The notes below the pieces were generated by a model that was not told where the DNA came from, did not search any database, and saw only the letters and a program-made list of their open reading frames with translations. This document shows, piece after piece, positions 5,247-30,111 of a stretch of DNA of 32,000 nt (positions within the stretch are counted from its first letter, which is position 1; every line of letters begins with the position of its first letter). This DNA is from Aeropyrum pernix K1 (lineage in GTDB: Archaea; Thermoproteota; Thermoprotei_A; Sulfolobales; Acidilobaceae): the NCBI RefSeq assembly GCF_000011125.1, contig NC_000854.2, forward strand, positions 930,001 to 962,000, given 5' to 3'. The position numbers were made by a program, and so were the translations under genes.

Positions 5247-6176
5247 CTAGGGCGTCACCAGCCTGTCCTTGAAGATGTCGAAGGGGTGTAGGAAGGGCTT
5301 CCCCTCCAGCTCGATTCTCCTGGTTGCTGGGGGCGCGCTCATGTACCCTGGCATTATCTTTTCCAGCCTCTCCTCGAAGGATTCCCGGGTCTGGTTCCAG
5401 TATAGTATGCCCAGTGGTATTCTGTCGCCGAACTCCATGAGCTTCGCCGCTATTGCAGGGGCCTTCTTCTGGAACTCCTCCGGCGTCCTTATTATCGGGT
5501 CGTAGCCCTCCTCCTGGTCTACATAGTATATCCTCTCCTCATACCACTTGTTCGTCATTATATTGTTGTAGGTTGGGCAGGGCTGGAGTATGTCGACGAG
5601 GGCTGCTCCTCTATGTCTTACCGCGGTTTTTATTAGCTCCTTGAGCTGCTGGGTGTGGTAGGCATAGCCCCTGGCTATGAATGTATAGCCGGCGGCGAAG
5701 GCTAGAAGCACGGGGTTTATGTTGTCGTGTATGTTGGGCATAGAGAGGGCCTTCGTCTTGACCCAGGCTGGCAGCGTCGGCGCTGCCTGGCCTTTTGTGA
5801 GGCCGTAGACGGCATTGTCGAAGAGGAGCACCGTTATGTTGAGGTTCCTCCTGCCGAGGGCGACGAAGTGGCCCCCGCCTATCCCCATTAGATCGCCGTC
5901 TCCTCCAGCTACTATCACGTTTAGATGTGGGTTAGCAAGTTTTACCCCCGTAGCCACAGGTATCGCGCGGCCGTGTAGCGCGTGGAAGTTGCTGCCCTTG
6001 ACATAGTAGGTTGTTCTCCCGCTGCAGCCTATACCTCCCACTACAGCCAGGTTCTCCGGGTCTATACCTAGCTCTGAAACAGCCCTGTATATGCTGTTGA
6101 GTATGCCGAAGTCGCCGCAGCCCGGGCACCACTGAACCCAGGCCTGAGTCTTATAGTCAAGCCAGCTACGAGCCAT
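5247..6176 (-). CDS. 2-oxoacid:ferredoxin oxidoreductase, beta (TPP-binding) subunit
   Basis: 309 aa with WCPGCGDFGIL and the TPP motif VAGGDGDLMGIGGGH. Its start overlaps the alpha-subunit stop by 11 nt. Confidence 0.9.
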   Translation of the reverse strand: MARSWLDYKTQAWVQWCPGCGDFGILNSIYRAVSELGIDPENLAVVGGIGCSGRTTYYVKGSNFHALHGRAIPVATGVKLANPHLNVIVAGGDGDLMGIGGGHFVALGRRNLNITVLLFDNAVYGLTKGQAAPTLPAWVKTKALSMPNIHDNINPVLLAFAAGYTFIARGYAYHTQQLKELIKTAVRHRGAALVDILQPCPTYNNIMTNKWYEERIYYVDQEEGYDPIIRTPEEFQKKAPAIAAKLMEFGDRIPLGILYWNQTRESFEERLEKIMPGYMSAPPATRRIELEGKPFLHPFDIFKDRLVTP

Positions 6177-11975: not shown

Positions 11976-12051
11976 TGGTAGCCGGGCCGGGATTCGAACC
12001 CGGGTCACGGGGGCCAAAACCCCGCATCCTGGGCCGCTAGACGACCCGGCT
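11976..12051 (-). tRNA. tRNA-Gln (anticodon UUG) with genomically encoded CCA
   Basis: Folded by hand on the minus strand. Acceptor stem is AGCCGGG/CCCGGCU (A1:U72), and the D stem is GUCU/GGAU (includes G-U pairs). The anticodon stem is CGGGG/CCCCG with loop UUUUGGC. The T arm is CCGGG-UUCGAAU-CCCGG, followed by discriminator A and CCA. 76 nt, no intron. Confidence 0.9.
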
Positions 12052-15876: not shown

Positions 15877-16548
15877 GTGTGGAGGATGGAGTATCACCCC
15901 TTTGTGCTGAGGGTTAGGGGGGCTAGGGTCCTGGTTGTGGGGGGCGGCGGTGTCGGGGGCAGGCGAGCGGTCCTGCTCGCTTCCAAGGGCGCTAAGGTTA
16001 GAGTGGTATCCCTTGAATTCTCCCAGGAGCTGCTCCGGGCTGCCGAGAGGCTTGGGATCGAGCTTATAGAGGGGGGTTTCGGCGAGGCTAGGAGGCATAT
16101 CCCCTGGGCTTCTATAGTCGTCATAGCAACACCCCATACGGGGGAGGCTGAAGAAATTGCTAGGGAGGCTTTGAAGGCTGGAAAGCTGGTTAACGTTGCA
16201 GCCGACCATAGGCTAGGGAACCTTCTCTTCCCCTTCGCAGGAGAGTCGAAGGGCCTCCTTGTGGGTGTGACTAGCCTTGGAGTCTCAGGCCTCGCCGCTA
16301 GAAGGGCTCTGGAGAAGATAATCGAGCTGCTTGATGGGGATGAGGAGGTAGAGTGTCTTCTAGAGACCCACGGGAGGCTGAAAAGGCTGTTGTTTGAGGT
16401 GGTCGAGGACTCGAGGCTCAGGATGGAGGTCCACACTTCGCTCTGGAATGACGCCGAGTATAGGAGGCTCTGTAGGGAGGGCCGTGTTGAGGAGGCTATG
16501 AGTAGGGCTTTGGAGGTGGCTAGGAGTGTCTCGGGAGCCCGCCTGTAG
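15877..16548 (+). CDS. sirC: Precorrin-2 dehydrogenase / sirohydrochlorin ferrochelatase (siroheme synthase N-domain, SirC/Met8-like)
   Basis: 223 aa. The Rossmann motif VLVVGGGGVGGRRAVLLASKGAKVRVVS is typical of the CysG N-terminal domain family. It starts 5 nt after the ThrC-like stop. Confidence 0.75.
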   Translation: MWRMEYHPFVLRVRGARVLVVGGGGVGGRRAVLLASKGAKVRVVSLEFSQELLRAAERLGIELIEGGFGEARRHIPWASIVVIATPHTGEAEEIAREALKAGKLVNVAADHRLGNLLFPFAGESKGLLVGVTSLGVSGLAARRALEKIIELLDGDEEVECLLETHGRLKRLLFEVVEDSRLRMEVHTSLWNDAEYRRLCREGRVEEAMSRALEVARSVSGARL

Positions 16549-17248
16549 CTACCTCGTGTTAACCCCTAGCGAGGACCTCGCAATAGAGCTGCACAAGCTC
16601 CTGGGGGGGAGCACGTTCTGGATACCGGTTATGGGGTTTAGAGAAGTCGAAGGGTGGCGGAATTCCCTCTTGAGGGCGCTGCGCCGGTGCCCTGTCCTGG
16701 GTATAACCAGCCCCCGCGGGGCCGAGCTGCTTGCTAGGGCCCCGGAGGTCCTCGAGGCTGCGGAGAGGGTGTATGCCGTCGGCCCGCAGACGGCGAGGGT
16801 GCTAGTGGAGATGGCGGGTGTGAAGCCGGTTGTACCCAGCAGTGGTTACAGCGTATCCTCCATGCTTAAGGAGGCGGAGGCTGCTGGTGAGAGGTGTATC
16901 GTGCTGGCGAGGAGCAAGGCTGGCCTGGGCAAGGGTGTTGAGGGGGTTGGGCTCAGGGTCTTGGAGGAGGCTGTGTACGAGCCGGTTATTAGGAGGGAGA
17001 TGCTGGAGGAGGCTGCTAGGCTGAAAGTTGACGTAGCGATACTGACGAGCGGGGAGATAGCGAGGATGTACTGTAGAGCCCTTGAGAAGGGGGGCGGCGG
17101 TGCAGGGGGGTATGTGGCAATAGGAGTATCGACAGCGCTTGCCGCCTCCTCGTGCCCGCCCAGGCCCCTCTGCGTCCCCTCCTCGGCGAGGAGGGAGGAG
17201 CTGGCCCGAGCGGCTCTAGCCCTCTGCAGGCTTCTCAAGAGCGGCTAG
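16526..17248 (+). CDS. hemD: Uroporphyrinogen-III synthase
   Basis: About 230-240 aa with a HemD-like two-lobe pattern (LGITSPRGAELL ... VYAVGPQTARVL ... AILTSGEIARMY). It either overlaps the sirC 3' end or starts at the GTG at 16556, 8 nt after it. Confidence 0.65.
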   Translation: MSREPACSYLVLTPSEDLAIELHKLLGGSTFWIPVMGFREVEGWRNSLLRALRRCPVLGITSPRGAELLARAPEVLEAAERVYAVGPQTARVLVEMAGVKPVVPSSGYSVSSMLKEAEAAGERCIVLARSKAGLGKGVEGVGLRVLEEAVYEPVIRREMLEEAARLKVDVAILTSGEIARMYCRALEKGGGGAGGYVAIGVSTALAASSCPPRPLCVPSSARREELARAALALCRLLKSG

Positions 17249-19481: not shown

Positions 19482-20468
19482 CTACCTTATGTAGCCGGGC
19501 TTCAAGTCTTCGAGGCTGAATATGGCCATGGCGTCCCTCGGCCTACACTTGGCTTTGGCCTCCTCCAGAACCATGTTTATCCTCTCCTTGCTCGTCGCGT
19601 GGACCATGAAGTAGCATATGTGCCTCCAAGCGCCCGGCGGGTAGCTCTCCCTGAGGACAACGTGGGTGCTGTACGGCAACTCGGCCGCCCTAACGCAAGT
19701 CTCCTCGCCACCCCCCTCAGGCTCCATAACAACCATAGCATTCTCGGTGAACCCTGCCTTGTGACCGTCAAGGGCCAGGCCCGGGTCCATCAGAACGCCC
19801 TTGTCGAGCAGGAGCTTAACCTGGCTGAGGACCTCGTCCACACTAATACCGAGCCTCTCAGCCGCGTGTGAGTAGGGATTAAGGTTGAGATGTAGCACCC
19901 TCACCAGCCTCGGGAGCAGGGGGTCTACCCCGAGGTCCTCAAGCTTTGGCGGCTTCTCCTCCACCCGCCAATACCGGCCGCTCCTCGATATACCCTCCCT
20001 CAGGTCGTACTTGACGCTAAGCTTGTACGTCTTCCTGCTGAAGAGTGCTATCCAATCCTTGACATCCACCTTTCTGGCGGCCTCGTCAACCGCTCTGAGA
20101 AGCTCCTCCCTGGTGGGCCTCTTGATCACTATCCAAACATTGTAGACGGGGTGGTTCCTCAGGTAGTTGTGGGTGACATCCGGGTCTCCGCGGAAGAGGT
20201 TAGCGAGCTCTCTGTACCTTTCTCCAGCGGCGAAGGCGACTAGCGCGGCGGTCTTGCCCTGGGCGCGGTAGTTATAGTAGAAGCCGATTCTCTTAACTAT
20301 CCCCGCCTTGGCAAGCTCCTTCAGCCTCTCCACAGCCTTCTCCGGGCTGAGTCCCACGCTCCTGGCCGCGTCTCCTATAGGGTCTGGGGTTAGCTGGAAG
20401 TTGTACTGGAGCTCCATAAGAAGGTCTATATCCTTTTCGCTGAGAAGCTGGGCCATGCCTGAAGCCAT
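19482..20468 (-). CDS. Fused AhbA/AhbB-type (NirD/L/G/H family) siroheme decarboxylase
   Basis: 328 aa comprising two Lrp/AsnC-like HTH plus effector-like repeats (LSEKDIDLLMELQYNFQLTPDPIGDAARSVGLSPEKAVERLKELAKAGIVKRIG..., and a second repeat from LPRLVRVLHLNLNPY...). It sits in a tetrapyrrole gene context. Confidence 0.7.
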   Translation of the reverse strand: MASGMAQLLSEKDIDLLMELQYNFQLTPDPIGDAARSVGLSPEKAVERLKELAKAGIVKRIGFYYNYRAQGKTAALVAFAAGERYRELANLFRGDPDVTHNYLRNHPVYNVWIVIKRPTREELLRAVDEAARKVDVKDWIALFSRKTYKLSVKYDLREGISRSGRYWRVEEKPPKLEDLGVDPLLPRLVRVLHLNLNPYSHAAERLGISVDEVLSQVKLLLDKGVLMDPGLALDGHKAGFTENAMVVMEPEGGGEETCVRAAELPYSTHVVLRESYPPGAWRHICYFMVHATSKERINMVLEEAKAKCRPRDAMAIFSLEDLKPGYIR

Positions 20469-20558: not shown

Positions 20559-21794
20559 TCAGTCTATGACGAACTTGTAACCCATGTCTCTGAGGTCCTC
20601 TAGAAGCTCGAAGAGGAGCATGCGCTCTGGCACTTCGAGCACGATTGTAACCCTCGCCATACCAGGGCTTATCCTGGGGTGGAGCCTGTCATGTATAATG
20701 TCTACAACATTGCACCTCTTCTCCGCTATCACCTCCAGAACCTTGTATAGCTGGCCCGGGATGTCGGGTATCACACCCGTTATCCTAGCTATCCTACCCT
20801 CCCTGGCGAGGCCAACCAGTATAACCTTCTCTATGCTTGTAAGGTCCGCGTTCCCCCCGCTAACTATTACAAGGGTCTTACCCTTGGGCTTCACCACCCT
20901 GGCAAGAAGGGCTGCCACGCCCGCGGCTCCGGCACCCTCAGCCAGAATCTTAGACCTCTCGAGGAGGAGGTACATGGCGCTCGCTATCTCATGCTCGTCC
21001 ACAGCCACAACCTTGTCGACAAGATGCTTCACTATGGGGTAGGTGAGCCTACCCGGCTTCTTGGTCACAAGCCCGTCGGCCAGGCTATGGGTGACTTCAA
21101 CCTCTATCGGCTTCCCCTCCTTGAAGCTCTCTACGAACTTGGGCGCAGCCTCCGCCTCAACACCTATGACCTTGACGCCGGGCATCAGCTTCCGCACAAC
21201 CGAGACTACACCAGAGATCAAACCGCCCCCGCCTACAGGCACTATCACCGTGTCGAACTTACCCCCCTGCTCGTAGGCCTCCCACGCTATAGTCCCGTTT
21301 CCAGCCATTATCTCGGGATCGTCGAAGGGGTGGACAAGCATGTATCCCCTCTCCTCCGCTATCTTCTCGGCGAGCTTAAACGCCTCGTCCACAACCCGGC
21401 CGTGCAGCACTACCTCAGCCCCGTACGACCTGGTAGCCTTAACCTTGGCTGGCGGGGCCAGCTCGGGCATGACTATAACGCTCTTGAGCCCGTAGAAGCT
21501 AGCGGCGTACGCAACACCCTGGGCATGGTTCCCGGCTGAGGCGGCGACCACTCCCTCCACACTGCCCTTCTCCAGCGCCCTGCCCAGCTTGAAAAGAGGT
21601 CCTCTCACCTTGAAGCTCCCGGTCTTCTGGAGGTTCTCGAGCTTCAGGTAAACCTCAGCCCCAGTTATCCTCGAGAGGGTGGTGCTCTTGTCTAGGGGTG
21701 TTACGTGGGCACCCCTGGCTACGTAGCCTCTGGCCTCAGAGCTGAGTCTAAATATCTCGTCCGCCAGCCTGAGAGCCTCTACTTCCTCCGACAA
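20559..21794 (-). CDS. ilvA: Threonine ammonia-lyase (threonine dehydratase) with a C-terminal ACT-like domain
   Basis: 411 aa with the PLP-lysine motif LENLQKTGSFKVRG and the glycine loop VPVGGGGLISG. A regulatory C-terminal domain of about 80 aa follows. Confidence 0.85.
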   Translation of the reverse strand: MSEEVEALRLADEIFRLSSEARGYVARGAHVTPLDKSTTLSRITGAEVYLKLENLQKTGSFKVRGPLFKLGRALEKGSVEGVVAASAGNHAQGVAYAASFYGLKSVIVMPELAPPAKVKATRSYGAEVVLHGRVVDEAFKLAEKIAEERGYMLVHPFDDPEIMAGNGTIAWEAYEQGGKFDTVIVPVGGGGLISGVVSVVRKLMPGVKVIGVEAEAAPKFVESFKEGKPIEVEVTHSLADGLVTKKPGRLTYPIVKHLVDKVVAVDEHEIASAMYLLLERSKILAEGAGAAGVAALLARVVKPKGKTLVIVSGGNADLTSIEKVILVGLAREGRIARITGVIPDIPGQLYKVLEVIAEKRCNVVDIIHDRLHPRISPGMARVTIVLEVPERMLLFELLEDLRDMGYKFVID

Positions 21795-22180
21795 GTGTAC
21801 AGCACCGCTTCAACCTCGAGAGGGGCGCCGAGGGGAAGAGCCGCGACCCCCACTACAGCTCTAGCTGGATACGGCCTGTTAAAATATTCCCTATAGACCT
21901 CGTTAAACTCGGAGAACCTGCTAATGTCGGTTATGTATACCGTTACCTTGACGATATCGTCCATACTATACCCGGCCCCCTCAACTATAGCCTTGAGATT
22001 GTCGAGAGCCCTCTTTGCGGACTCTTTAAAACCGCCCTCTTCTAGAGCACCGGTCTCCGGGTTTATCGGTATCTGGCCGGAGACAAACATGAAACAGCCC
22101 GACTCGACAGCCTGGCTGTATGGTCCCACAGGCTTTGGAGCCGTCTCCACAAATACCTCTCTCTTAACCTCGCCCGACAA
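21779..22180 (-). CDS. ridA: RidA/YjgF-family reactive enamine/imine deaminase
   Basis: APKPVGPYSQAV...VSGQIP is the RidA signature. The track ORF starts at the ATG at 22213, but that codon lies only about 5-15 nt from the TATA element at 22218-22229. The TTG at 22180 (MSGEVKREVF...) gives a normal-length protein and leader. Its 3' end overlaps the ilvA start by 16 nt. Confidence 0.8.
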   Translation of the reverse strand: MSGEVKREVFVETAPKPVGPYSQAVESGCFMFVSGQIPINPETGALEEGGFKESAKRALDNLKAIVEGAGYSMDDIVKVTVYITDISRFSEFNEVYREYFNRPYPARAVVGVAALPLGAPLEVEAVLYTCRRK

Positions 22181-22217
22181 CCCCCAGGACCCTAGTGTTG
22201 ATAATAGATACAAAGCA

Positions 22218-22458: not shown

Positions 22459-23004
22459 GTGTTGGTGCAGGGTTTCGAGGAGGATCTGGCGTTTCTAGGG
22501 TGGATAGCGTTGACTCTCGGCTCAAACCCACTAGTCCCCTATGTGCCTACGAGGCCCGAGCTCATACCAAAGATCCTCGAGCTCCTTGATCTGAAGGAGG
22601 ACGATGTCTTCTACGACCTAGGCTGTGGTGATGGCAGGGTCGTCATAGAGGCTGTTAAGAAGACAAGGGTGAAAAAGGCTGTCTGCGTCGAGACTAGGGA
22701 CGACCTGGTGAAGGAGGCTAGGAAGAAGGCTGAGGAGGAGGGTGTCTCGGATAGGATTGAGTTCATTAATAACGACTTTTTCAAGACCCCTCTGAAGGAT
22801 GCTACGGCGGTTTACATGTATCTCCTCACCAGCGTCAACGAGAGCCTCAAGCCGAAGCTTGCGCGCGAGCTACGGGATGGAACGAGGATCGTTACACTAG
22901 ACTTCCCCATACCCGGGTGGAAGCCGGTTAAGGTTGAGACCGCCACTACGGGGTGGCAGAGGAGCCTATACCTCTATGTTAAGGGTGTCTCCGACAGGGC
23001 ATAG
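22459..23004 (+). CDS. Small class-I SAM methyltransferase resembling the crenarchaeal protein lysine methyltransferase aKMT
   Basis: VPYVPTRPE...VFYDLGCGDGRVVIEA...KKAVCVE...MYLLTSVNESLKPKLARELRDGTRIV...IPGWKP...SLYLYV follows, block by block, the Sulfolobus aKMT sequence as I remember it. The N-terminal 17-20 residues may not be translated, since the TTG at 22510 is an alternative start. Confidence 0.65.
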   Translation: MLVQGFEEDLAFLGWIALTLGSNPLVPYVPTRPELIPKILELLDLKEDDVFYDLGCGDGRVVIEAVKKTRVKKAVCVETRDDLVKEARKKAEEEGVSDRIEFINNDFFKTPLKDATAVYMYLLTSVNESLKPKLARELRDGTRIVTLDFPIPGWKPVKVETATTGWQRSLYLYVKGVSDRA

Positions 23005-23060
23005 AGACGTTCCATTCCTAGCGCTTTTAACCTCGAAGCTATACAGTCTCCCCTATTAGG

Positions 23061-23816
23061 GTGTATAGCTTGGTCGACAGAGTCAAGACAGGCATTCCCG
23101 GGATGGATGATATCTTGTACGGGGGGATACCCCGTAGGAACGTTGTGCTGCTGAGCGGAGGACCTGGCACCGGGAAGTCTATATTCTCGTACCAGTACCT
23201 CTGGAACGGGCTTAGGGAGGGAGAGCCCGGCGTCTTCGTCGCCCTGGAGGAGCACCCGGTCCAGGTCAGGATTAACATGGCGCAGTTCGGATGGGATGTT
23301 AGGGAGTATGAGAGGCAGGGCCTCTTCGCCGTTGTCGACGCGTTCACAAGCGGGATAGGAGAGGCTGCTAAGAAGGAGAGGTATGTTGTTACCGACCCCG
23401 AGGACGTTGGGCTTCTTATAGATGTCCTGAAGGAGGCTATAAGGGATGTCGGGGCCAAGAGGGTTGCTGTGGACAGCGTCTCAACACTCTACCTCGCTAA
23501 ACCGGTTCTGGCTAGGAGAACTGTGATGCTCCTGAAGCGGGTGTTGTCCGGTCTAGGCACTACTAGCATACTGGTGAGCCAGGTCTCCGTGACGGAGAGG
23601 GGTTTCGGGGGGCCTGGTGTCGAGCACGCTGCCGACGGCATAATCAGGCTCGACCTCGACGAGGTTGACGGGGAGCTTGTGAGAAGCCTTATTATTTGGA
23701 AGATGAGGGGGACGAAGCACAGCATGAGGCGCCACCCCTTCGAGATCACTGATAAAGGGATAATAGTTTATCCCGACAAGGTCGTGAGGATCGGCCGCCG
23801 GGTATCTATAGAGTAG
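23061..23816 (+). CDS. Single-domain KaiC-like / RecA-superfamily ATPase
   Basis: 251 aa. [32 protein letters not shown] (Walker A) and the overall layout are typical of the archaeal KaiC-like COG0467 family. Confidence 0.85.
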
Positions 23817-25151
23817 ATGCCGGGAGTGCCCTATAGGGTGGACTCCGTCTTGGCAGGGAATTCTGGCCACACTATCGACACTCTGCTCCTCACCTTCGAC
23901 GACGTAGCCATACTACCCGGTCTGAGCACAGTGGAGCCTCACGACGTGGAGCTCTCCAGCAGGGTGAGTAGGAGCATATTCGTGAGCACACCCCTCGTCT
24001 CCAGCCCTATGGATACCGTGACGGAGTGGAGAATGGCCGCCGCCCTTGCGAGGCTTGGAGCCGTGGGGGTAATACACAGGAACATGCCGCGGGAGGAGCA
24101 GGCAAGGCATGTAAGCATGGTTAAGAGCGTTTCTCCATCGCCTTGGAGCGAGGTGCCCAGGATTAGGCTGCCAGACGGGCTGGAGAACTACTCCCTGATC
24201 CTGGAGGAGCTTGACGCTGGAGCAGCCGTAGTTTTCGGCGACGACGGTATAAAGGGGTATCTAGTACTCGAAAGGCCCGACGCCCAGCTGTGGCTAGAGA
24301 AGGCGAGGTATCTCAGCCTCTACCTGACGAGGATTAGGCCCTTCCCCACGATAGATGGTGAGGGAAGGCTCGTGGTGGGAGCCGCTGTCAGCCCCTTCGA
24401 CCTTGACAGGGCGAGGCTTCTTGAAAAGAGTGGCGCGGACTTTCTAGTCATCGATGTGGCCCACCTCCACAACAGAAACGCTCTCTCAAGCCTTTCCAGG
24501 CTCGTGAAGGAGGTGTCCATCGATGTCGTCGCCGGGAATCTAGGCACCAGGGAAGGGGTTCTGGACACTCTAGCCAGGGCCGAGGAGGTGGCTGGCCTGA
24601 GGATGGGTATATCCAGCGGCAGTATATGCAGCACAGGCGAGGTTGCTGGCGCTGCAGTACCTACCCTGACTGCGGTTATGAACGCGGTCTTAGCCCTAGA
24701 GGAACTGGGCCTCGCCGGGAGGATACCCATAATCGCTGACGGGGGGGTGAGGAATGCTGGCGACGCCGCGAAGGCGATAATAGCGGGGGCCTCTGCCGTC
24801 ATGGGGGGCAGGCTCTTCGCGGGAGCCGACGAGAGCCCGGGCCCCAGGATAAGGGTTGGCGACAAGCTTTACAAGCCCTACCGCGGCATGGCGAGTAGAG
24901 GGGCTATGGAGAGGAGGTTCGCCGTAGACCGTTACTCGAGGCAGGCAAAGGCGGTTGAGGAGGGTGTGGAGGGGCTAGTGCCTTACACAGGCCCAGTTGT
25001 CAAGACGCTCTACGAGCTGGCGGAGGGGCTGAAGGCGGCGCTCGGCTATGCAGGTGCCCAGGACGTGACCTCGGCCTGGAAGGCCAAGCTAGCCAGGGTC
25101 ACGCCGACGGGCTCCAGGGAGATTAGGCCTCACGACATACTCCTAGGGTGA
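23817..25151 (+). CDS. guaB: IMP dehydrogenase family protein with a shortened Bateman (CBS) insert
   Basis: LTFDDVAILPG, SSPMDTVTE, GVIHRN, the catalytic-loop-like GISSGSICST, IADGGVRNAGD, YRGMAS and EGVEGLVPY are all IMPDH blocks. Its ATG immediately follows the KaiC-like stop codon. Confidence 0.75.
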   Translation: MPGVPYRVDSVLAGNSGHTIDTLLLTFDDVAILPGLSTVEPHDVELSSRVSRSIFVSTPLVSSPMDTVTEWRMAAALARLGAVGVIHRNMPREEQARHVSMVKSVSPSPWSEVPRIRLPDGLENYSLILEELDAGAAVVFGDDGIKGYLVLERPDAQLWLEKARYLSLYLTRIRPFPTIDGEGRLVVGAAVSPFDLDRARLLEKSGADFLVIDVAHLHNRNALSSLSRLVKEVSIDVVAGNLGTREGVLDTLARAEEVAGLRMGISSGSICSTGEVAGAAVPTLTAVMNAVLALEELGLAGRIPIIADGGVRNAGDAAKAIIAGASAVMGGRLFAGADESPGPRIRVGDKLYKPYRGMASRGAMERRFAVDRYSRQAKAVEEGVEGLVPYTGPVVKTLYELAEGLKAALGYAGAQDVTSAWKAKLARVTPTGSREIRPHDILLG

Positions 25152-25633
25152 CGAGGCGAGGGGTGGCTCTAGTGGCTCGAAGGCTCCCCTCATCCCCTGG
25201 TAGGGTCTATGCGGTTAAGATCGATGAGGGCGAGGACGTCCACAGCGTCCTATCCAGCCTGGCGGAGGCTGAGGACCTGGGCTTCGCTATGGTAACAGGT
25301 ATTGGGGGTATGGCGGAGGCGACTGTCGCCTTCTACAGCCCTCCCGAGGCTACGTACTATACTGTAGACGTTAAACCTCCCGAGGGGAGGGTGATTGAGG
25401 TTGCAGCCATGACCGGGAACATAGTCAAGACATCGCAGGGGTACAGCGTTCACATCCACGTGGCCCTAGGCGTCTCCCCGGGGAAGAGCATATCCGGCCA
25501 TCTCGTTAAAGGTGTCGTCAAGCCTTTCATGGAGGTTTTCGTTGTAGAGCTTGTTTCTGGACAGGGCACCCCAGGCACAAGCGTGTTCGACCATAGAGAG
25601 GGGTTCAAAGCCTCGTACAAGAGGCTCGAGTAG
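25148..25633 (+). CDS. PPC (DUF296) domain protein
   Basis: 161 aa. The pattern VYAVKIDEGEDVHSVLSSLAEAE...GIGGMAEATVAFY...YSVHIHVALG...GHLVKGVV matches the PPC/DUF296 fold pattern. The GTG start overlaps the IMPDH stop (GTGA), and the GTGs at 25163 and 25172 are alternatives. Confidence 0.65.
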   Translation: MTRRGVALVARRLPSSPGRVYAVKIDEGEDVHSVLSSLAEAEDLGFAMVTGIGGMAEATVAFYSPPEATYYTVDVKPPEGRVIEVAAMTGNIVKTSQGYSVHIHVALGVSPGKSISGHLVKGVVKPFMEVFVVELVSGQGTPGTSVFDHREGFKASYKRLE

Positions 25634-25639
25634 ACACTA

Positions 25640-26407
25640 CTATCCAGTGCTGCGCTGGCTCCTCCAACTCCACGCGGCAGCCCTTACTATATCACCCTCG
25701 TCCAGCGAAGCCAGAGGCTTCCACCCCGAGTGGACTACTGCGACCCTCGTGGCCGCGTCGACCATAGCGGCCACAACCTCTGACAGGGCCCCCTCGCAGT
25801 GGGTGAAAACGTCTATAGGCTCGGCGGCATCTCCGGCTCGAGCACCCTCAACTGCGGCCTTAAGGGCTGACAAAGGCTCCAGGAAGCCCCACGGGCTCTC
25901 AACACCCACTAGAGCTATAGCCCTCCCGAAGGAGGCCATGGCCTCTAGACCAGCCTCAACAGGCTCGTCGGGAGACACGCGGGGGTGGAGACCTTCCGCC
26001 GCCTCTGAGACCGGTGTAAGAAGCTCCCCAGGCTCTATAGCCTGGAGAACATCCCAACTTGTGAACACGCCGGTAACACCACCTAAGTCCACTAGTAGAG
26101 TGGATAGGCCGGTCCTGACCATCAGCTCCGCCGCCTCTCCCACAGGAGTATCCCCCCCTACTACTGGGGGCCTAGCCTTGGCTACTAATGAGAGGGGAGT
26201 GTCCCACAGCCCAGCCCCGAGCCTCTCGAAAAGAGACGGTATGTCACCCGGCTCTACAACCCCTGTGACCGCCACCCCCCTCCCTACTAGTATCCTGTGT
26301 TTATGCAGCACAAGCAAGGCGGACACTGCATCTCCCAGGCTTGTGGAGGGCTCGAAGGTTATGGCGGGGGCAGATGCGTAGAGAGAAACCTTATCATTGA
26401 GGCCCAA
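25640..26407 (-). CDS. Stand-alone CBS-domain protein (about four CBS motifs)
   Basis: 255 aa with repeated CBS-like segments (SLGDAVSALLVLHKHRILV..VTGVVEPGDI; PVGEAAELMVRTGLSTLLV..VTGVFTSWDVLQAI; and others). TTG start, with a TATA-like GTATAAAG about 24 nt upstream, consistent with a leaderless transcript. The antisense 276-aa ORF is judged a shadow. Confidence 0.55.
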   Translation of the reverse strand: MGLNDKVSLYASAPAITFEPSTSLGDAVSALLVLHKHRILVGRGVAVTGVVEPGDIPSLFERLGAGLWDTPLSLVAKARPPVVGGDTPVGEAAELMVRTGLSTLLVDLGGVTGVFTSWDVLQAIEPGELLTPVSEAAEGLHPRVSPDEPVEAGLEAMASFGRAIALVGVESPWGFLEPLSALKAAVEGARAGDAAEPIDVFTHCEGALSEVVAAMVDAATRVAVVHSGWKPLASLDEGDIVRAAAWSWRSQRSTG

Positions 26408-26426
26408 AGCCCTAAATACACCCCAG

Positions 26427-26434
26427 CTTTATAC
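26427..26434. promoter_or_regulatory. TATA-like element (CTTTATAC / GTATAAAG) in the divergent CBS / GHMP-like intergenic region
   Basis: Read directly. The spacing fits a leaderless start of the minus-strand CBS gene at 26407. It could also serve the plus-strand operon. Confidence 0.4.
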
Positions 26435-26500
26435 TGGCTTCCCCCAGGCTAATTTACCTAAGCCCTCCAAACCAGGGACCAAATACTTGGGAGGAGGCCC

Positions 26501-27424
26501 GTGGGGAGTGTAGTCTATGTTGAGGGCGGCTCAAGGCTTCACGCTGGGTTCCACATTGTTGATCCGCAGCGTGGAGTGTGGGGTGGAGCCGGCTTTTACG
26601 TGGAGGAGCCGAGGGTCAGGGTTGAGGCGTGGGACTGCGGTGAGGCCAGGTGGGAGGTTGACAGTGACATAGCCACCCTGCTAGAGAGGGCTGGACTCGC
26701 GTGGGGCTGCCTTAAGATAGCTAGCAGGCCTCCCAGGCACATGGGTCTAGGGTCTACTACACAGCTCTCACTCGCCGCCTCAATGGCGCTCTTAGCACTG
26801 AAGGGGCTCCGCCCATCTATCCCAAGTCTCGCGGCCAGGCTGGGGAGGGGCCGCTTCTCGGCGGTGGGCACACTCCTAGCCGTCCACGGCGGCTTTGTCC
26901 TGGATTCAGGGAGCGTGTCAACTCCTCCCATATCCGCCGTGAGGGTGCCGGAGGATTGGAGGTTCGTCCTGGTTATCCCCCAGCTGGAACCGGGGTTCGA
27001 GGAGGGGCGGGCGGAGGATTTGGCCCTGAAGACTGCGGGCTTGAGGGCTGCTAGGGGGGGTGACTTGAGGTCTCGGGGGGCTCTCCTCCTGGCGGTCGGC
27101 ATTGCTAGGGGGGACCTTGACATTGCTCTAGAGGGCCTCTCATCTATGCAGGCAGGGACGGGGCTATTGTTCCAGGAGGTTCAGGGGGCTGTCTTTAGGC
27201 GGGACCTCATGAATATTGTTGACGAGGCCTCTAGGAACGGGGTCAAACTCGCCCAGTCCAGCTGGGGGCCCACTCTCTATACTATATCGCATGAGTCGAC
27301 AGCGGATTCCGACGCCCGCATGCTAAGGGCTATACTCCGTTCCCATGGTATTAGGGGGGAGGTACTCGTGACGAGACCCAGGAACAAGGGTCTAACCCTT
27401 GAGGTGGGGATGGATGGTGGTTGA
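26501..27424 (+). CDS. GHMP-kinase-superfamily protein, beta-ribofuranosylaminobenzene-5'-phosphate (beta-RFAP) synthase-like
   Basis: 307 aa. The N-terminal GSRLHAGF...WGGAGFYVEEPRVRVEA and the GHMP motif-II-like HMGLGSTTQLSLAAS fit my recollection of the TIGR00144-type family. Its 3' end overlaps the IPCT start. Confidence 0.55.
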   Translation: MGSVVYVEGGSRLHAGFHIVDPQRGVWGGAGFYVEEPRVRVEAWDCGEARWEVDSDIATLLERAGLAWGCLKIASRPPRHMGLGSTTQLSLAASMALLALKGLRPSIPSLAARLGRGRFSAVGTLLAVHGGFVLDSGSVSTPPISAVRVPEDWRFVLVIPQLEPGFEEGRAEDLALKTAGLRAARGGDLRSRGALLLAVGIARGDLDIALEGLSSMQAGTGLLFQEVQGAVFRRDLMNIVDEASRNGVKLAQSSWGPTLYTISHESTADSDARMLRAILRSHGIRGEVLVTRPRNKGLTLEVGMDGG

Positions 27425-28160
27425 CGCTGGCCTAGTGTTGGCGGCCGGCTTCTCAAGGAGGTTCAGAGGCCTCCTGGGGGTCCATAAGGTTGCAGCCGGT
27501 GTGAGGGGCTACCCGCTGCTGTGCTACCCGGTGACAAGCCTAGCCCTGGCTGGCGTGGACAGGGTCTTCGTCGTAGCGTCGCAATTCAACCTTAACGTGG
27601 TAGAGCTTGTCCTCGGCCACTGCCCATTCCGAGTTTCTGGCGTGCTAATATCGAGCCTCTCCACACTCGGCAACGGTTTCAGCCTTGTAGAGGGCCTCAG
27701 GGAGGCTGGCCTGAGAGGGTCCAGATGCCTGGCGGTGTCCATGGCCGATCACGTGTACCCTCCCAGCATAGCTAGGAGGCTGATTGAGGCTGGATGTAAC
27801 ACGCTCGGAGTAGACTCCAGGCCTAGGTATATAGAGGTGGGAGAGGCGACGCACGTTTCCCTAGAACCGGGGGCTGGCGTGAGGCTTGGAAAGGATGTTG
27901 AGGGATGTTGTGTCGACATAGGCATACACACGATAGAGGCGGGTATAGCCTCGATAGGCTGCATAGACCTTCCCCCCCGTGGTGAGGCCAGCGTGTCCCA
28001 GCTCATCACCTGCGCTGCCAGAAAGGGGTACACGTTCAAGCTTGTAGACGTGGACGGGGGCCCTTGGATGGAGGTCGACTCTCCCGAGGACCTAGAGAGG
28101 CTCCTGCAGGGTGACGGTCTGGAGGTCCTGGAGGCTGTTAGGAGTGAGTGGGGATTCTAA
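27414..28160 (+). CDS. CTP:L-myo-inositol-1-phosphate cytidylyltransferase (IPCT)-like nucleotidyltransferase
   Basis: The N-terminal GLVLAAGFSRRF is the nucleotidyltransferase G-rich loop. The protein is about 250 aa and lies immediately upstream of, and overlapping, a CDP-alcohol phosphatidyltransferase, with MIPS nearby. The ATG at 27414 is preceded by GAGGTG, and the TTG at 27399 is an alternative. Confidence 0.7.
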   Translation: MVVDAGLVLAAGFSRRFRGLLGVHKVAAGVRGYPLLCYPVTSLALAGVDRVFVVASQFNLNVVELVLGHCPFRVSGVLISSLSTLGNGFSLVEGLREAGLRGSRCLAVSMADHVYPPSIARRLIEAGCNTLGVDSRPRYIEVGEATHVSLEPGAGVRLGKDVEGCCVDIGIHTIEAGIASIGCIDLPPRGEASVSQLITCAARKGYTFKLVDVDGGPWMEVDSPEDLERLLQGDGLEVLEAVRSEWGF

Positions 28161-28782
28161 ACCCACGGACGGCCCTGTCTCTAGATTTTTGAACAGGAGG
28201 ATAGCCTCGGCTATAGCCTCCGCCATCATCGCCCTCAACTTGCCCCTCACCCCTAACATGCTCTCGCTAATATCGTTCCTGACGGCCGCCGCCGCTGCCC
28301 TGTTTATAGCGGGTGGCCAGCTCCTCGTAGGCGGCCTTCTAGTCCAGCTTTCATCGGTGCTGGACGGCGTCGACGGTATAGTTGCGAGGAGGCTGAGGGC
28401 CGCCTCCAAGGCAGGAGGCTTCCTGGACACAATGCTAGACAGGTACGCGGACACCGTCATATACCTGGCACTGGCATACGCAGCCGTCGCAACCCATGGT
28501 CTCGAAACGTGGGCTGTCCTCACAGCTGTGCTGGCAGTGTCGGGGGACATCATGGTAAGCTATCTCCACACCCGGGGCGAGAGAGACGCCGGTGTCCACC
28601 CATCCCTCGTCGGCCCCTTAGACTCCCTTGCCTCCAGGGATGTGAGGCTCCTCATAGTAGCAGTTATCACCGCGGCCGGAAGGCCTCTGGAGGCGATGGC
28701 GGCGGTGGCGCTTCTCTCACACGCCTACGTTGCCGTAAAGTCGATCTACCTGTTCTCCCTCCTCAAATCCAAGGGTGTCTAG
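28144..28782 (+). CDS. CDP-alcohol phosphatidyltransferase, di-myo-inositol-phosphate-phosphate synthase (DIPPS)-like
   Basis: Complete signature DGIVARRLRAASKAGGFLDTMLD (D-G-x2-A-R-x8-G-x3-D-x3-D), and the protein is multi-pass hydrophobic. The ORF is open from 28111, and the GTG at 28144 overlaps the IPCT 3' end by 17 nt. Confidence 0.75.
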   Translation: MSGDSKPTDGPVSRFLNRRIASAIASAIIALNLPLTPNMLSLISFLTAAAAALFIAGGQLLVGGLLVQLSSVLDGVDGIVARRLRAASKAGGFLDTMLDRYADTVIYLALAYAAVATHGLETWAVLTAVLAVSGDIMVSYLHTRGERDAGVHPSLVGPLDSLASRDVRLLIVAVITAAGRPLEAMAAVALLSHAYVAVKSIYLFSLLKSKGV

Positions 28783-28890
28783 ACGGAGGGCTCCGTTAAC
28801 GCTTAAATCCGGGGGGTCCAACTTTTATCATGGGGTTTTCAAAGTCTCGGAGCACCACTATCTAGCCTCCCCAGGGGCTCTTGATTAGCG

Positions 28891-28898
28891 TAAAATAA
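28891..28898 (+). promoter_or_regulatory. TATA-like box (TAAAATAA) upstream of the myo-inositol-1-phosphate synthase gene
   Basis: It lies 35-42 nt upstream of the GTG at 28933, and GGAGGTGA sits just before the start codon. Confidence 0.45.
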
Positions 28899-28932
28899 CC
28901 CCCTTTAACTCTACATCCGGAGGTGACGTGGC

Positions 28933-30111
28933 GTGGTGCGTATAGTAGTCTTGGGGCAGGGTCTAGTTGCCACACACCTCGCAGTCGGCCTCGAGAGGAT
29001 CAAATCCGGGGAACTCGAGCCTGTCGGTGTCCCCCTCGAGAGGTTCGAGTATGAGATACCTGTGAAGAGTCTTGAGATAGTCGGGTCTTTCGACGTAGAC
29101 CCCGGGAAGGTGGGCAGAACTATATACCAGGTTGCCAAGGATATGCTGGGGAGCCAGCTGCCGGTGCCCCAGAGCCTTGAGGCGGTTAGGGTTGAGCGGG
29201 GTATACATGCTGGTAGCGTTAAGGGGCTAATCCCTGGTGCCCGTGGCCTGGATGAGGACCTGGGTATGGAGGAGGCTGTGGAGATTGTTGCTGACAGGCT
29301 TCAGCATTTAAGGCCGGACGTCGTTATCAACGTGATAACCACTGAGAGAGCAGAGCCCTTCGAGACGCTCGAGAGCGTTCGCGACAGGGTCAGGAGGGGG
29401 CTAGTTAGCGCGAGCCAGGCTTACGCCCTAGCTGTACTCAGGTATGCGGAGAGGGAGGCTAGGAGGGTTGCGCTGGTCAACGCCATACCAGCGCCTCTAG
29501 CTAACGATCCAGTACTAGTCTCGATGTTTGAAGAAGCCGGAAGCCTCCTTCTAGGCGACGATGGGGCGACGGGAGCAACCCCCCTTACGGCGGACCTGCT
29601 TGAGCATCTAGCAGAGAGGAATAGGAGGGTGCTTTCGATAGCCCAGTTCAACATCGGCGGCAACCTCGACTTCCTCGCTCTCACCCTTCCAGAGAAGAAT
29701 ATTATGAAGGAGAAGACTAAGAGTAGCGTCGTTAAGGACATACTGGGCTACGACGTCCCCCACTACATAAAGCCCACGGGCTTCCTGGAGCCCCTCGGCG
29801 ATAAGAAGTTCGTTTCAATGCATATCGCGTGGAAGACTTTCAACGGCCTTGAGGACGAGCTCGTTGTGAACATGAGGATCAACGATAGCCCGGCTCTCGC
29901 TGGCCTCCTCGTCGACCTGGCGAGGATAAGCTATAGCCTGCTGGAGAGAGGGTACAAGGGTACTGTGTACGAGGTCAACGCGTTCTTTATGAAGAATCCG
30001 GGCCCAAGGGAGGCTCCAAACATAGCTAGGATTACGGCCTTCCAGAACATGGTGAAGCTCCTGCAGGGTCTAGGAGCCCTGAGTACCGGCTTGCCTGGGA
30101 GAAGGGCTTAG
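28933..30111 (+). CDS. ino1: myo-Inositol-1-phosphate synthase (archaeal short type)
   Basis: 392 aa. The N-terminal Rossmann-like RIVVLGQGLVATHL, the overall length and the adjacency to IPCT/DIPPS fit archaeal MIPS. Confidence 0.75.
   Translation: MVRIVVLGQGLVATHLAVGLERIKSGELEPVGVPLERFEYEIPVKSLEIVGSFDVDPGKVGRTIYQVAKDMLGSQLPVPQSLEAVRVERGIHAGSVKGLIPGARGLDEDLGMEEAVEIVADRLQHLRPDVVINVITTERAEPFETLESVRDRVRRGLVSASQAYALAVLRYAEREARRVALVNAIPAPLANDPVLVSMFEEAGSLLLGDDGATGATPLTADLLEHLAERNRRVLSIAQFNIGGNLDFLALTLPEKNIMKEKTKSSVVKDILGYDVPHYIKPTGFLEPLGDKKFVSMHIAWKTFNGLEDELVVNMRINDSPALAGLLVDLARISYSLLERGYKGTVYEVNAFFMKNPGPREAPNIARITAFQNMVKLLQGLGALSTGLPGRRA

Follow-up and report, generated by a model that had tools for sequence, protein, structure and literature searches.

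Gene content of the guaB locus

We analyzed a 32,000-nt stretch of DNA from Aeropyrum pernix K1 (referred to as the window; all positions are numbered within it) that contains guaB, the gene for IMP dehydrogenase (IMPDH), lying between the gene for a KaiC-like ATPase and that for a PPC/DUF296 protein, with a gene for a protein of CBS repeats, APE_1510.1, convergent on this string (Table 1). Identities were assigned to the open reading frames (ORFs) of a six-frame list with Pfam and NCBIfam profiles, and all four ORFs named in the original prediction for this locus were found at the positions given there, with their families confirmed by Pfam.

Table 1. Coordinates of the genes, motifs and other features found in the window
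Feature	Position	Strand	Remarks
TTTTAA, TATA-box-like	23025..23030	+	31-36 nt 5′ of the KaiC-like start, read from the sequence
KaiC-like ATPase	23061..23816	+	251 aa; PF06745, E = 8.5e-90
guaB, IMP dehydrogenase	23817..25151	+	Longest ORF, 444 aa; PF00478, E = 2.2e-105
Insert, residues 106-182	24132..24362	+	77 aa; one predicted CBS motif in place of the two-CBS Bateman module
Cys271 codon (TGC) in GSICST	24627..24629	+	Catalytic; invariant in 53 homologues
Arg372-Tyr373 codons	24930..24935	+	Flap catalytic dyad; aligned with RY of solved IMPDHs
PPC/DUF296 (PCC) protein	25148..25633	+	161 aa; PF03479, E = 3.7e-23; alternative start GTG 25163
APE_1510.1, four-CBS protein	25640..26407	-	255 aa; PF00571, E = 6.1e-15; convergent on the PPC gene
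GVFTSWD, residues 113-119, ribose-phosphate motif	26051..26071	-	Sole canonical one in APE_1510.1 (regular expression)
GHMP-kinase/β-RFAP-synthase-like gene	26501-27424		Pfam/NCBIfam
IPCT-like NTP transferase	27399-28160		Pfam/NCBIfam
DIPP-synthase-like CDP-alcohol transferase	28111-28782		Overlaps the IPCT-like gene by 50 nt
myo-Inositol-1-phosphate synthase	28933-30111		Pfam/NCBIfam
CysG-N-like NAD-binding protein	15877-16548		Pfam/NCBIfam
HemD	16526-17248		Pfam/NCBIfam
Fused two-unit AsnC/NirDL-like siroheme-decarboxylase-type protein	19482-20468	-	
Threonine dehydratase	20559-21794	-	Overlaps RidA by 16 nt
RidA	21779-22213	-	
aKMT-like protein-lysine methyltransferase	22459-23004		

The guaB product retains the catalytic features of IMPDH

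The IMPDH of the window scored 352.9 bits against PF00478 (cut-off 25.6), matched solved IMPDHs in the PDB at E = 1e-82 and was 98% identical to an A. pernix database entry, while a look-up of the exact sequence returned no record. Its AlphaFold2 (AF2) model, built from an alignment of 53 sequences, had a mean predicted local distance difference test score (pLDDT) of 89.5 and a predicted template-modelling score of 0.90, and the top Foldseek matches of this model were IMPDH-family structures only. The catalytic-loop context GSICST, which the original prediction had reported as kept, was present with an invariant cysteine, and D371, R372, Y373 and D308-G-G were likewise invariant in the same 53-sequence alignment. 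The Arg-Tyr dyad of the flap is the feature that separates IMPDH from GMP reductase. Compared with PH0307 (PDB 2CU0), the canonical GuaB of Pyrococcus horikoshii (E = 2.7e-81; TM-score of 0.92 on the barrel), the enzyme shares the (β/α)8 barrel, the catalytic Cys loop, the Arg-Tyr dyad and the insertion point of the regulatory subdomain, but PH0307 carries an insert of about 120 residues with two CBS motifs, whereas that of the A. pernix enzyme has 77 residues and one predicted motif.

The surroundings of orthologous genes are consistent with a role in purine salvage. The orthologue of Caldisphaera lagunensis sits in a guaA-adenine deaminase-IMPDH arrangement, that of Pyrodictium delaneyi adjoins guaA, and A. 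pernix itself, having no de novo purine synthesis, depends on adenine (PMC3261824), which together point to conversion of IMP to XMP on the salvage route. We therefore infer that the A. pernix enzyme catalyzes the NAD-dependent oxidation of IMP to XMP. No other Aeropyrum-labelled protein was present among the 120 best IMPDH homologues, which reach down to about 44% identity, although the genome was not fully scanned for a second copy.

A predicted single CBS motif replaces the Bateman module throughout a clade

IMPDH is a textbook allosteric enzyme, in which the Bateman module balances the adenine and guanine nucleotide pools. The original prediction had counted about 77 residues where this module is expected, and in our MAFFT alignment the spacing from MVKSV to GRLVVGAAV was exactly 77 residues; this interval holds 113-125 residues in Pyrodictiaceae and other canonical relatives, and about 117-120 in IMPDHs of solved structure. 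Structure prediction, which had been proposed as a check, folded the insert as β1(115-117)-α1(123-131)-β2(136-141)-β3(144-150)-α2(156-173), with block pLDDT values of 84-98, and thus as the topology of one CBS motif at high confidence. When compared with the long forms by hhalign, the core of the insert aligned with CBS2 (E = 2e-4) as well as with CBS1 (E = 4e-4), which makes it a homologue of one or the other CBS unit; a scan of the insert alone with the Pfam CBS model PF00571 gave no match. Alignment, AF2 and hhalign thus agree with the earlier proposal that the nucleotide-sensing module has been partly lost, and leave one CBS motif in its place.

The window IMPDH and its 120 best homologue clusters (121 sequences, aligned with MAFFT) served to survey the length of this insert. 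Inserts of 70-81 residues were found in 93 of the 121 (92 clusters and the window), and 79 of the 93 fell within 75-79 residues; the carriers were Aeropyrum, Acidilobaceae, Caldisphaera and metagenome-assembled genomes (MAGs) of Desulfurococcales. Since so many of the closest sequences carry it, the shortening is not a local decay. Other archaeal IMPDHs were reduced to different lengths, namely 62 residues in 407-411-aa Desulfurococcales proteins, 30 residues in one protein and about 4-8 residues in the 349-aa IMPDHs of Nitrososphaerales, indicating that reduction of the insert is a repeated event in archaeal IMPDHs. The forms of about 349 aa with essentially no CBS insert are widespread in Nitrososphaerales MAGs (loci L029-L080).

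Within the short-insert clade the mean pairwise identity was 36% for the insert and 68% for the barrel, so that the insert has changed about twice as fast. Its residues W110, W158, K161, A162, P175 and P177 and the segments PSPW and P-x-P-x-x-D are nonetheless conserved and, together with the constant length, suggest a selected, folded mini-domain rather than a decaying remnant. A regular-expression scan for the ribose-phosphate-binding motif G-h-h-T/S-x-x-D/N, as defined previously (bioRxiv 10.1101/2025.10.11.676729), found it in none of the 93 short forms.

Catalysis without a Bateman module has precedents in Borrelia burgdorferi (1EEP, 404 aa) and Cryptosporidium parvum (3FFS, 400 aa), which we take to be natural CBS-less enzymes, as well as in the 349-aa Nitrososphaerales IMPDHs, indicating repeated loss; the two-CBS module is therefore typical of IMPDH and not strictly defining. 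In those enzymes the subdomain is almost wholly gone, whereas the clade of A. pernix has kept exactly half of it, folded and conserved in length. Literature searches for single-CBS IMPDHs or for the Aeropyrum enzyme gave no relevant description, and within the literature searched this clade-wide architecture is previously undescribed.

The KaiC-like/IMPDH/PPC string is conserved in related lineages

The original prediction had called for a survey of KaiC-like/IMPDH/DUF296 synteny, and this revealed a conserved string. The order KaiC-IMPDH-PPC was found in the window, in A. camini (L170) and in L001, L003, L004, L006/L162, L084, L164 and L167, while L165 has the same order with an extra ORF inserted. 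The arrangement is reduced to KaiC-IMPDH in L166, and the same pair lies at contig ends in L083 and L092; L002 has IMPDH-PPC on a contig that ends before any upstream gene. The IMPDHs of the triplet relatives are 57-70% identical to that of the window, and the flanking genes vary, including glutamine synthetase, isocitrate dehydrogenase, Lhr helicase, molybdopterin oxidoreductase and threonine dehydratase/RidA. Because the flanks differ between triplet loci, the string appears to have been retained against rearrangement.

The triplet was absent from L005, L007-L013, L161 and Caldisphaera, and the inserts of L005, L007-L013 and Caldisphaera are of the same type as that of the window; it was also absent from the 62-aa-insert locus L168 and the long-form loci L014 and L169. 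About half of the short-insert clade lacks linkage to the KaiC-like and PPC genes, with the insert unchanged. Judged from a neighbour-joining tree, this distribution points to an early origin of the KaiC-guaB adjacency in the 77-aa clade, followed by several losses. The string is thus a lineage-specific gene arrangement of about ten related lineages.

The first gene of the string encodes a near-universal, single-domain orthologue of the PH0284 type (UPF0273). Its product scored 451.6 bits against TIGR03877 (thermo_KaiC_1), above the NCBIfam cut-off of 307.25, and its best structural match was P. horikoshii PH0284 (PDB 2DR3, E = 1.7e-120), with which it shares full-length orthology, a single KaiC domain and the Walker motifs; Walker A (GGPGTGKS), the Glu pair of ALEE and Walker B (RVAVDS) can all be read in the translation. 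A circadian KaiC was considered and rejected, since this would have two tandem domains (about 500 aa) whereas the window protein has one in 251 aa, and its scores with the NCBIfam models of circadian KaiC, 148 and 120, were below the respective cut-offs of 408 and 546. Across Thermoproteota loci the ATPase is 72-91% identical. A literature search on PH0284/UPF0273 yielded nothing beyond mentions as a structural homologue.

Approached from the side of the ATPase, linkage to guaB is the exception. Metagenome contigs with close KaiC-like relatives (72-90% identical) provided 68 loci whose downstream sequence extended for 600 nt or more, of which only 2 had an IMPDH gene downstream, the two genes not being adjacent in the other 66; among PH0284-type ATPases, linkage to guaB is thus confined to the Aeropyrum-related clade. 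The usual neighbours outside this clade (loci L085-L160) were a helix-turn-helix (HTH)/long-coiled-coil protein of some 177-220 aa in 28 loci, reverse gyrase in 24 and CDC48 in 22, the first two typically lying 3′ of the KaiC-like gene and CDC48 typically 5′, and these surroundings are possibly the conserved neighbourhood of the ATPase.

The PPC protein scored 82.5 bits against PF03479 (cut-off 25) and matched PH0802 (PDB 2DT4) at E = 2.6e-10; like this protein and the AF structure 2H6L, it has one PCC domain, about 150 aa in length. To our knowledge no function has been assigned to the prokaryotic members of this family, nor do we know of a described linkage between PPC genes and guaB. Wherever both genes are present they are 0-17 nt apart, L165 excepted. 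The ORF that separates them there (186 aa, at 5300-5860 of that locus) has weak similarity to PEMT/ICMT-like membrane methyltransferases. A word-based homologue search with the PPC protein returned 2 clusters, a number that does not allow statistics on co-occurrence.

Gene junctions and candidate promoters

The tight coupling of the three genes claimed in the original prediction was confirmed, with caveats. The letters of both junctions are as reported: the KaiC-like stop codon (TAG, 23814-23816) abuts the ATG at 23817 of the longest IMPDH ORF, and the GTG at 25148 of the PPC gene overlaps the IMPDH stop codon (TGA, 25149-25151). The closeness of IMPDH and PPC also stands. The PPC protein of another A. 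pernix strain is annotated with 156 aa, as would be expected if translation began at GTG 25163, and with this start the gap to the IMPDH gene is still no more than 12 nt.

The KaiC/IMPDH abutment, on the other hand, is doubtful. Residues 1-16 of the longest IMPDH ORF are unconserved and have pLDDT values below 50, homologous IMPDHs start 3-10 residues ahead of the LTFDDV motif, and the guaB start of A. camini, which follows a 40-nt spacer, aligns with TTG 23850. The spacers between the KaiC-like and IMPDH genes of other relatives span 2-65 nt and often contain TATA-like AT-rich boxes. Spacers with such boxes are 40-65 nt long among the relatives. The true guaB start is thus probably TTG 23850 (433 aa) and not ATG 23817, and the abutment of stop and start codons is probably an artefact of ORF extension, as indicated by the unconserved N terminus, the start in A. 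camini and the spacers of the relatives. guaB may have a promoter of its own. Over 23817-23852, disorder is predicted for the first 11 codons of the IMPDH ORF, which show no conservation, and GGGTGG precedes TTG 23850.

Ahead of the string, the TATA-box-like TTTTAA may be the promoter of the KaiC-like gene, whose transcript would then be leaderless or nearly so. An Rfam scan of the window found no riboswitch-like element, its sole match being a tRNA gene at 11979-12051 (minus strand), and a repeat scan of 22900-26600 returned only short, chance-like matches.

APE_1510.1 is a divergent four-CBS protein

The convergent protein made only of CBS repeats, as the original prediction had described it, was found to be the product of a real gene, whose stop codon lies 6 nt from that of the PPC gene. 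Its sequence matches APE_1510.1 at 100% identity, with CBS as the only family match. Orthologues are present in A. camini (259 aa), in L167 (38% identity over 101 aa, E = 2.5e-14) and, at 46% and 51% identity respectively, in an Aeropyrum MAG and a Logan contig. The competing antisense ORF at 25551-26381 was rejected, because it is closed in the Aeropyrum sp. locus L001, in which no open stretch exceeds 99 aa. The entries P0003 and P0123 both come from one 2,777-nt Logan contig.

Scanned alone with Pfam, the CBS2 segment matched at E = 2e-9 and CBS1 at E = 0.083. A profile of 5 orthologues matched CBS-pair proteins over residues 48-182 and 136-249 and the four-CBS proteins 3DDJ, 2YZQ, 9ZNF, 9ZNI and Dri (9E6Q) over a span of 72-245, and we conclude that APE_1510.1 comprises two complete Bateman modules, with four CBS motifs and no other domain. 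Its AF2 model, built from 3 sequences, was informative only for residues 14-130 (mean pLDDT 52.9, with the C-terminal half below 50). G113, T116 and D119 of its one canonical ribose-phosphate motif were invariant in 5 orthologues, and the protein probably binds an adenosyl ligand. In size (about 250-300 aa), in consisting of CBS motifs only, and in combining two Bateman modules with a sole intact adenosyl-ligand motif, it resembles the stand-alone proteins 3DDJ, PH1780 (2YZQ), 9ZNI/9ZNF/9ZNG, Dri (9E6Q) and HhpR. It is at the same time highly divergent from them (best PDB match with the profile, E = 4.5e-10), fast-evolving and has few detectable orthologues. Archaeal four-CBS proteins have been described as ribosome hibernation factors or transcription regulators (PMC11705074; bioRxiv 10.1101/2025.10.11.676729).

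We scanned 26 loci for neighbours of this type with a hidden Markov model built from 5 orthologues, the window protein among them, and found a CBS protein beside the PPC gene only in the window, L001 and L167. Gene calls place one beside PPC in A. camini (L170) also, and probably the same holds for the Logan contig. The matches in L006 and L162 were to a different protein, with an Rrf2/HrcA-type winged-helix domain and CBS motifs, located 3.6 kb upstream. A convergent CBS neighbour is missing from at least 15 of the short-insert loci sampled. The GHMP-like gene adjoins the CBS gene divergently in A. camini and the Aeropyrum MAG and co-directionally in L167, where the fetched sequence contained no genes for IPCT, DIPP synthase or inositol-1-phosphate synthase. 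Given that this neighbour is equally conserved, the position of the CBS gene does not single out a partnership with guaB, and the CBS protein could be partnered with the GHMP-like gene instead.

Other genes of the window

A gene cluster for di-myo-inositol phosphate (26501-30111) lies directly to the right of the CBS gene, and the two halves of the fused IPCT-DIPPS enzyme model of Thermococcales are matched here by separate genes. To the left of the KaiC-like gene, the window holds the genes for CysG-N-like and HemD proteins, a siroheme-decarboxylase-type protein, threonine dehydratase, RidA and an aKMT-like methyltransferase (Table 1).

Interpretation of the locus

The explanation that we consider likely is that of an ordinary guaB locus, encoding a catalytically complete IMPDH with a clade-wide single-CBS insert, set in a lineage-specific gene string and next to an independent APE_1510.1. 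The A. pernix enzyme would carry out the IMP-to-XMP step that turns salvaged adenine or hypoxanthine into guanine nucleotides. Its two-CBS Bateman module would have been cut to a 77-aa single motif that became fixed in Aeropyrum, Acidilobaceae and related Desulfurococcales and may serve mainly as a structural or oligomerisation element, the canonical sensing of adenine and guanine nucleotides having presumably been lost or greatly altered. guaB would be co-transcribed with the PPC gene 0-12 nt downstream, with the gene for the PH0284-type ATPase directly ahead, and APE_1510.1, whose adjacency is local to Aeropyrum and one further lineage, would not be the donor of the missing half.

Several observations weigh against this explanation. 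The strict G-h-h-T/S-x-x-D/N motif is also missing in 15 of the 19 closest long forms, which makes the motif a weak argument for loss of sensing, and ribose could still be bound by the conserved Asp/Asn (D156) that caps the N terminus of α2. The string has persisted in about ten lineages although its flanks have turned over completely, which is beyond usual neutral persistence and could be the sign of a functional link. The CBS gene, moreover, stays beside PPC in L167 although the surroundings there differ, the GHMP-like gene excepted.

Sensing may also have been rebuilt between subunits, which we regard as possible but unlikely: two IMPDH chains, from opposing tetramers for instance, would each contribute a CBS motif, and these would pair through their β-sheets into an intermolecular Bateman module, with nucleotide sensing and octamer control both kept. 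CBS motifs normally act as β-sheet-paired tandems (bioRxiv 10.1101/2025.10.11.676729), and the insert is predicted with confidence to fold as one motif, its length is strictly conserved and it has conserved Trp, Lys and Asp/Asn positions; yet the canonical ligand motif is missing in every short form, and the long α2 (156-173) together with PSPW could cover the sheet within one chain. That the lost half has instead been replaced by the neighbours, with the ATPase and/or a PPC trimer binding or modifying IMPDH, seems rather improbable to us. The retention of the string among IMPDHs of only 57-70% identity and with differing flanks speaks for such a module, as does the constant proximity of IMPDH and PPC, and the neighbour-joining tree places the adjacency in both subclades of the 77-aa clade and outside the 62-aa and long-form outgroups, so that adjacency and short insert may have originated at the same time. 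However, the adjacency has been lost in L005, L007-L013 and Caldisphaera despite the same type of insert, nearly all of the other ATPase loci have no IMPDH nearby, the TATA-like boxes in the KaiC-IMPDH spacers suggest a separate guaB promoter, and the ATPase is far more conserved than either IMPDH or PPC, pointing to a core function independent of lineage. The original prediction had suggested that the KaiC-like and PPC proteins form a regulatory unit around purine-nucleotide status; the unlinked ATPase loci, and the unchanged insert in the half of the clade without linkage, do not bear this out.

The same prediction had proposed that APE_1510.1 supplies or complements the lost half of IMPDH in trans. 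The convergent adjacency is kept in A. pernix, A. camini, the Aeropyrum MAG, L167 and probably one Logan contig, the protein has one intact adenosyl-ligand motif, and in Escherichia coli IMPDH the Bateman function can act independently of catalysis. Against this, no such neighbour is present in L003, L004, L006/L162, L164, L165, L166 or any Acidilobus-type locus with this type of insert; a word-based search found 3 clusters of the CBS protein, too few for co-occurrence statistics, compared with 92 short-insert IMPDH clusters; its four CBS motifs are already fully paired, with no unpaired half to donate; the GHMP-like gene is equally conserved beside it; and related four-CBS proteins act in ribosome hibernation and transcription. 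Supply in trans is therefore very unlikely, and the four-family regulatory unit likewise is not supported, the CBS gene being adjacent in only 4-5 loci, although guaB may be functionally linked to the PPC or the KaiC-like gene. A broader version, with a split Bateman module in which the lone CBS motif has to pair with a CBS motif of another chain before nucleotides can be sensed, this chain being either an IMPDH subunit or the Aeropyrum CBS protein, and the KaiC-like and PPC proteins belong to the same adenine-to-guanine circuit, is hardly more probable. Least probable of all is that the enzyme is another family member, a GuaB1-type GMP reductase or a GuaB3-like protein. Its score with the NCBIfam equivalog TIGR01302 (329.7 bits) is below the trusted cut-off of 481.5, but the match is split into two stretches flanking the insert, and the unmatched insert accounts for the shortfall. 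IMPDH is still the best model by a wide margin (168 bits for the GuaB1 GMP reductase model), and orthologues lie beside guaA; on these NCBIfam scores and the invariant Arg-Tyr dyad we rejected reassignment as a GMP reductase.

On the explanation that we favor, a whole clade carries an IMPDH with half a Bateman module, which constitutes a natural test of what one CBS motif does alone. It raises the question of whether regulation has been lost, rebuilt between subunits or passed to partner proteins, and the question has added weight because the host is an adenine-requiring hyperthermophile in which this enzyme would be the step, from IMP to XMP, that leads from salvaged purines to guanine nucleotides.

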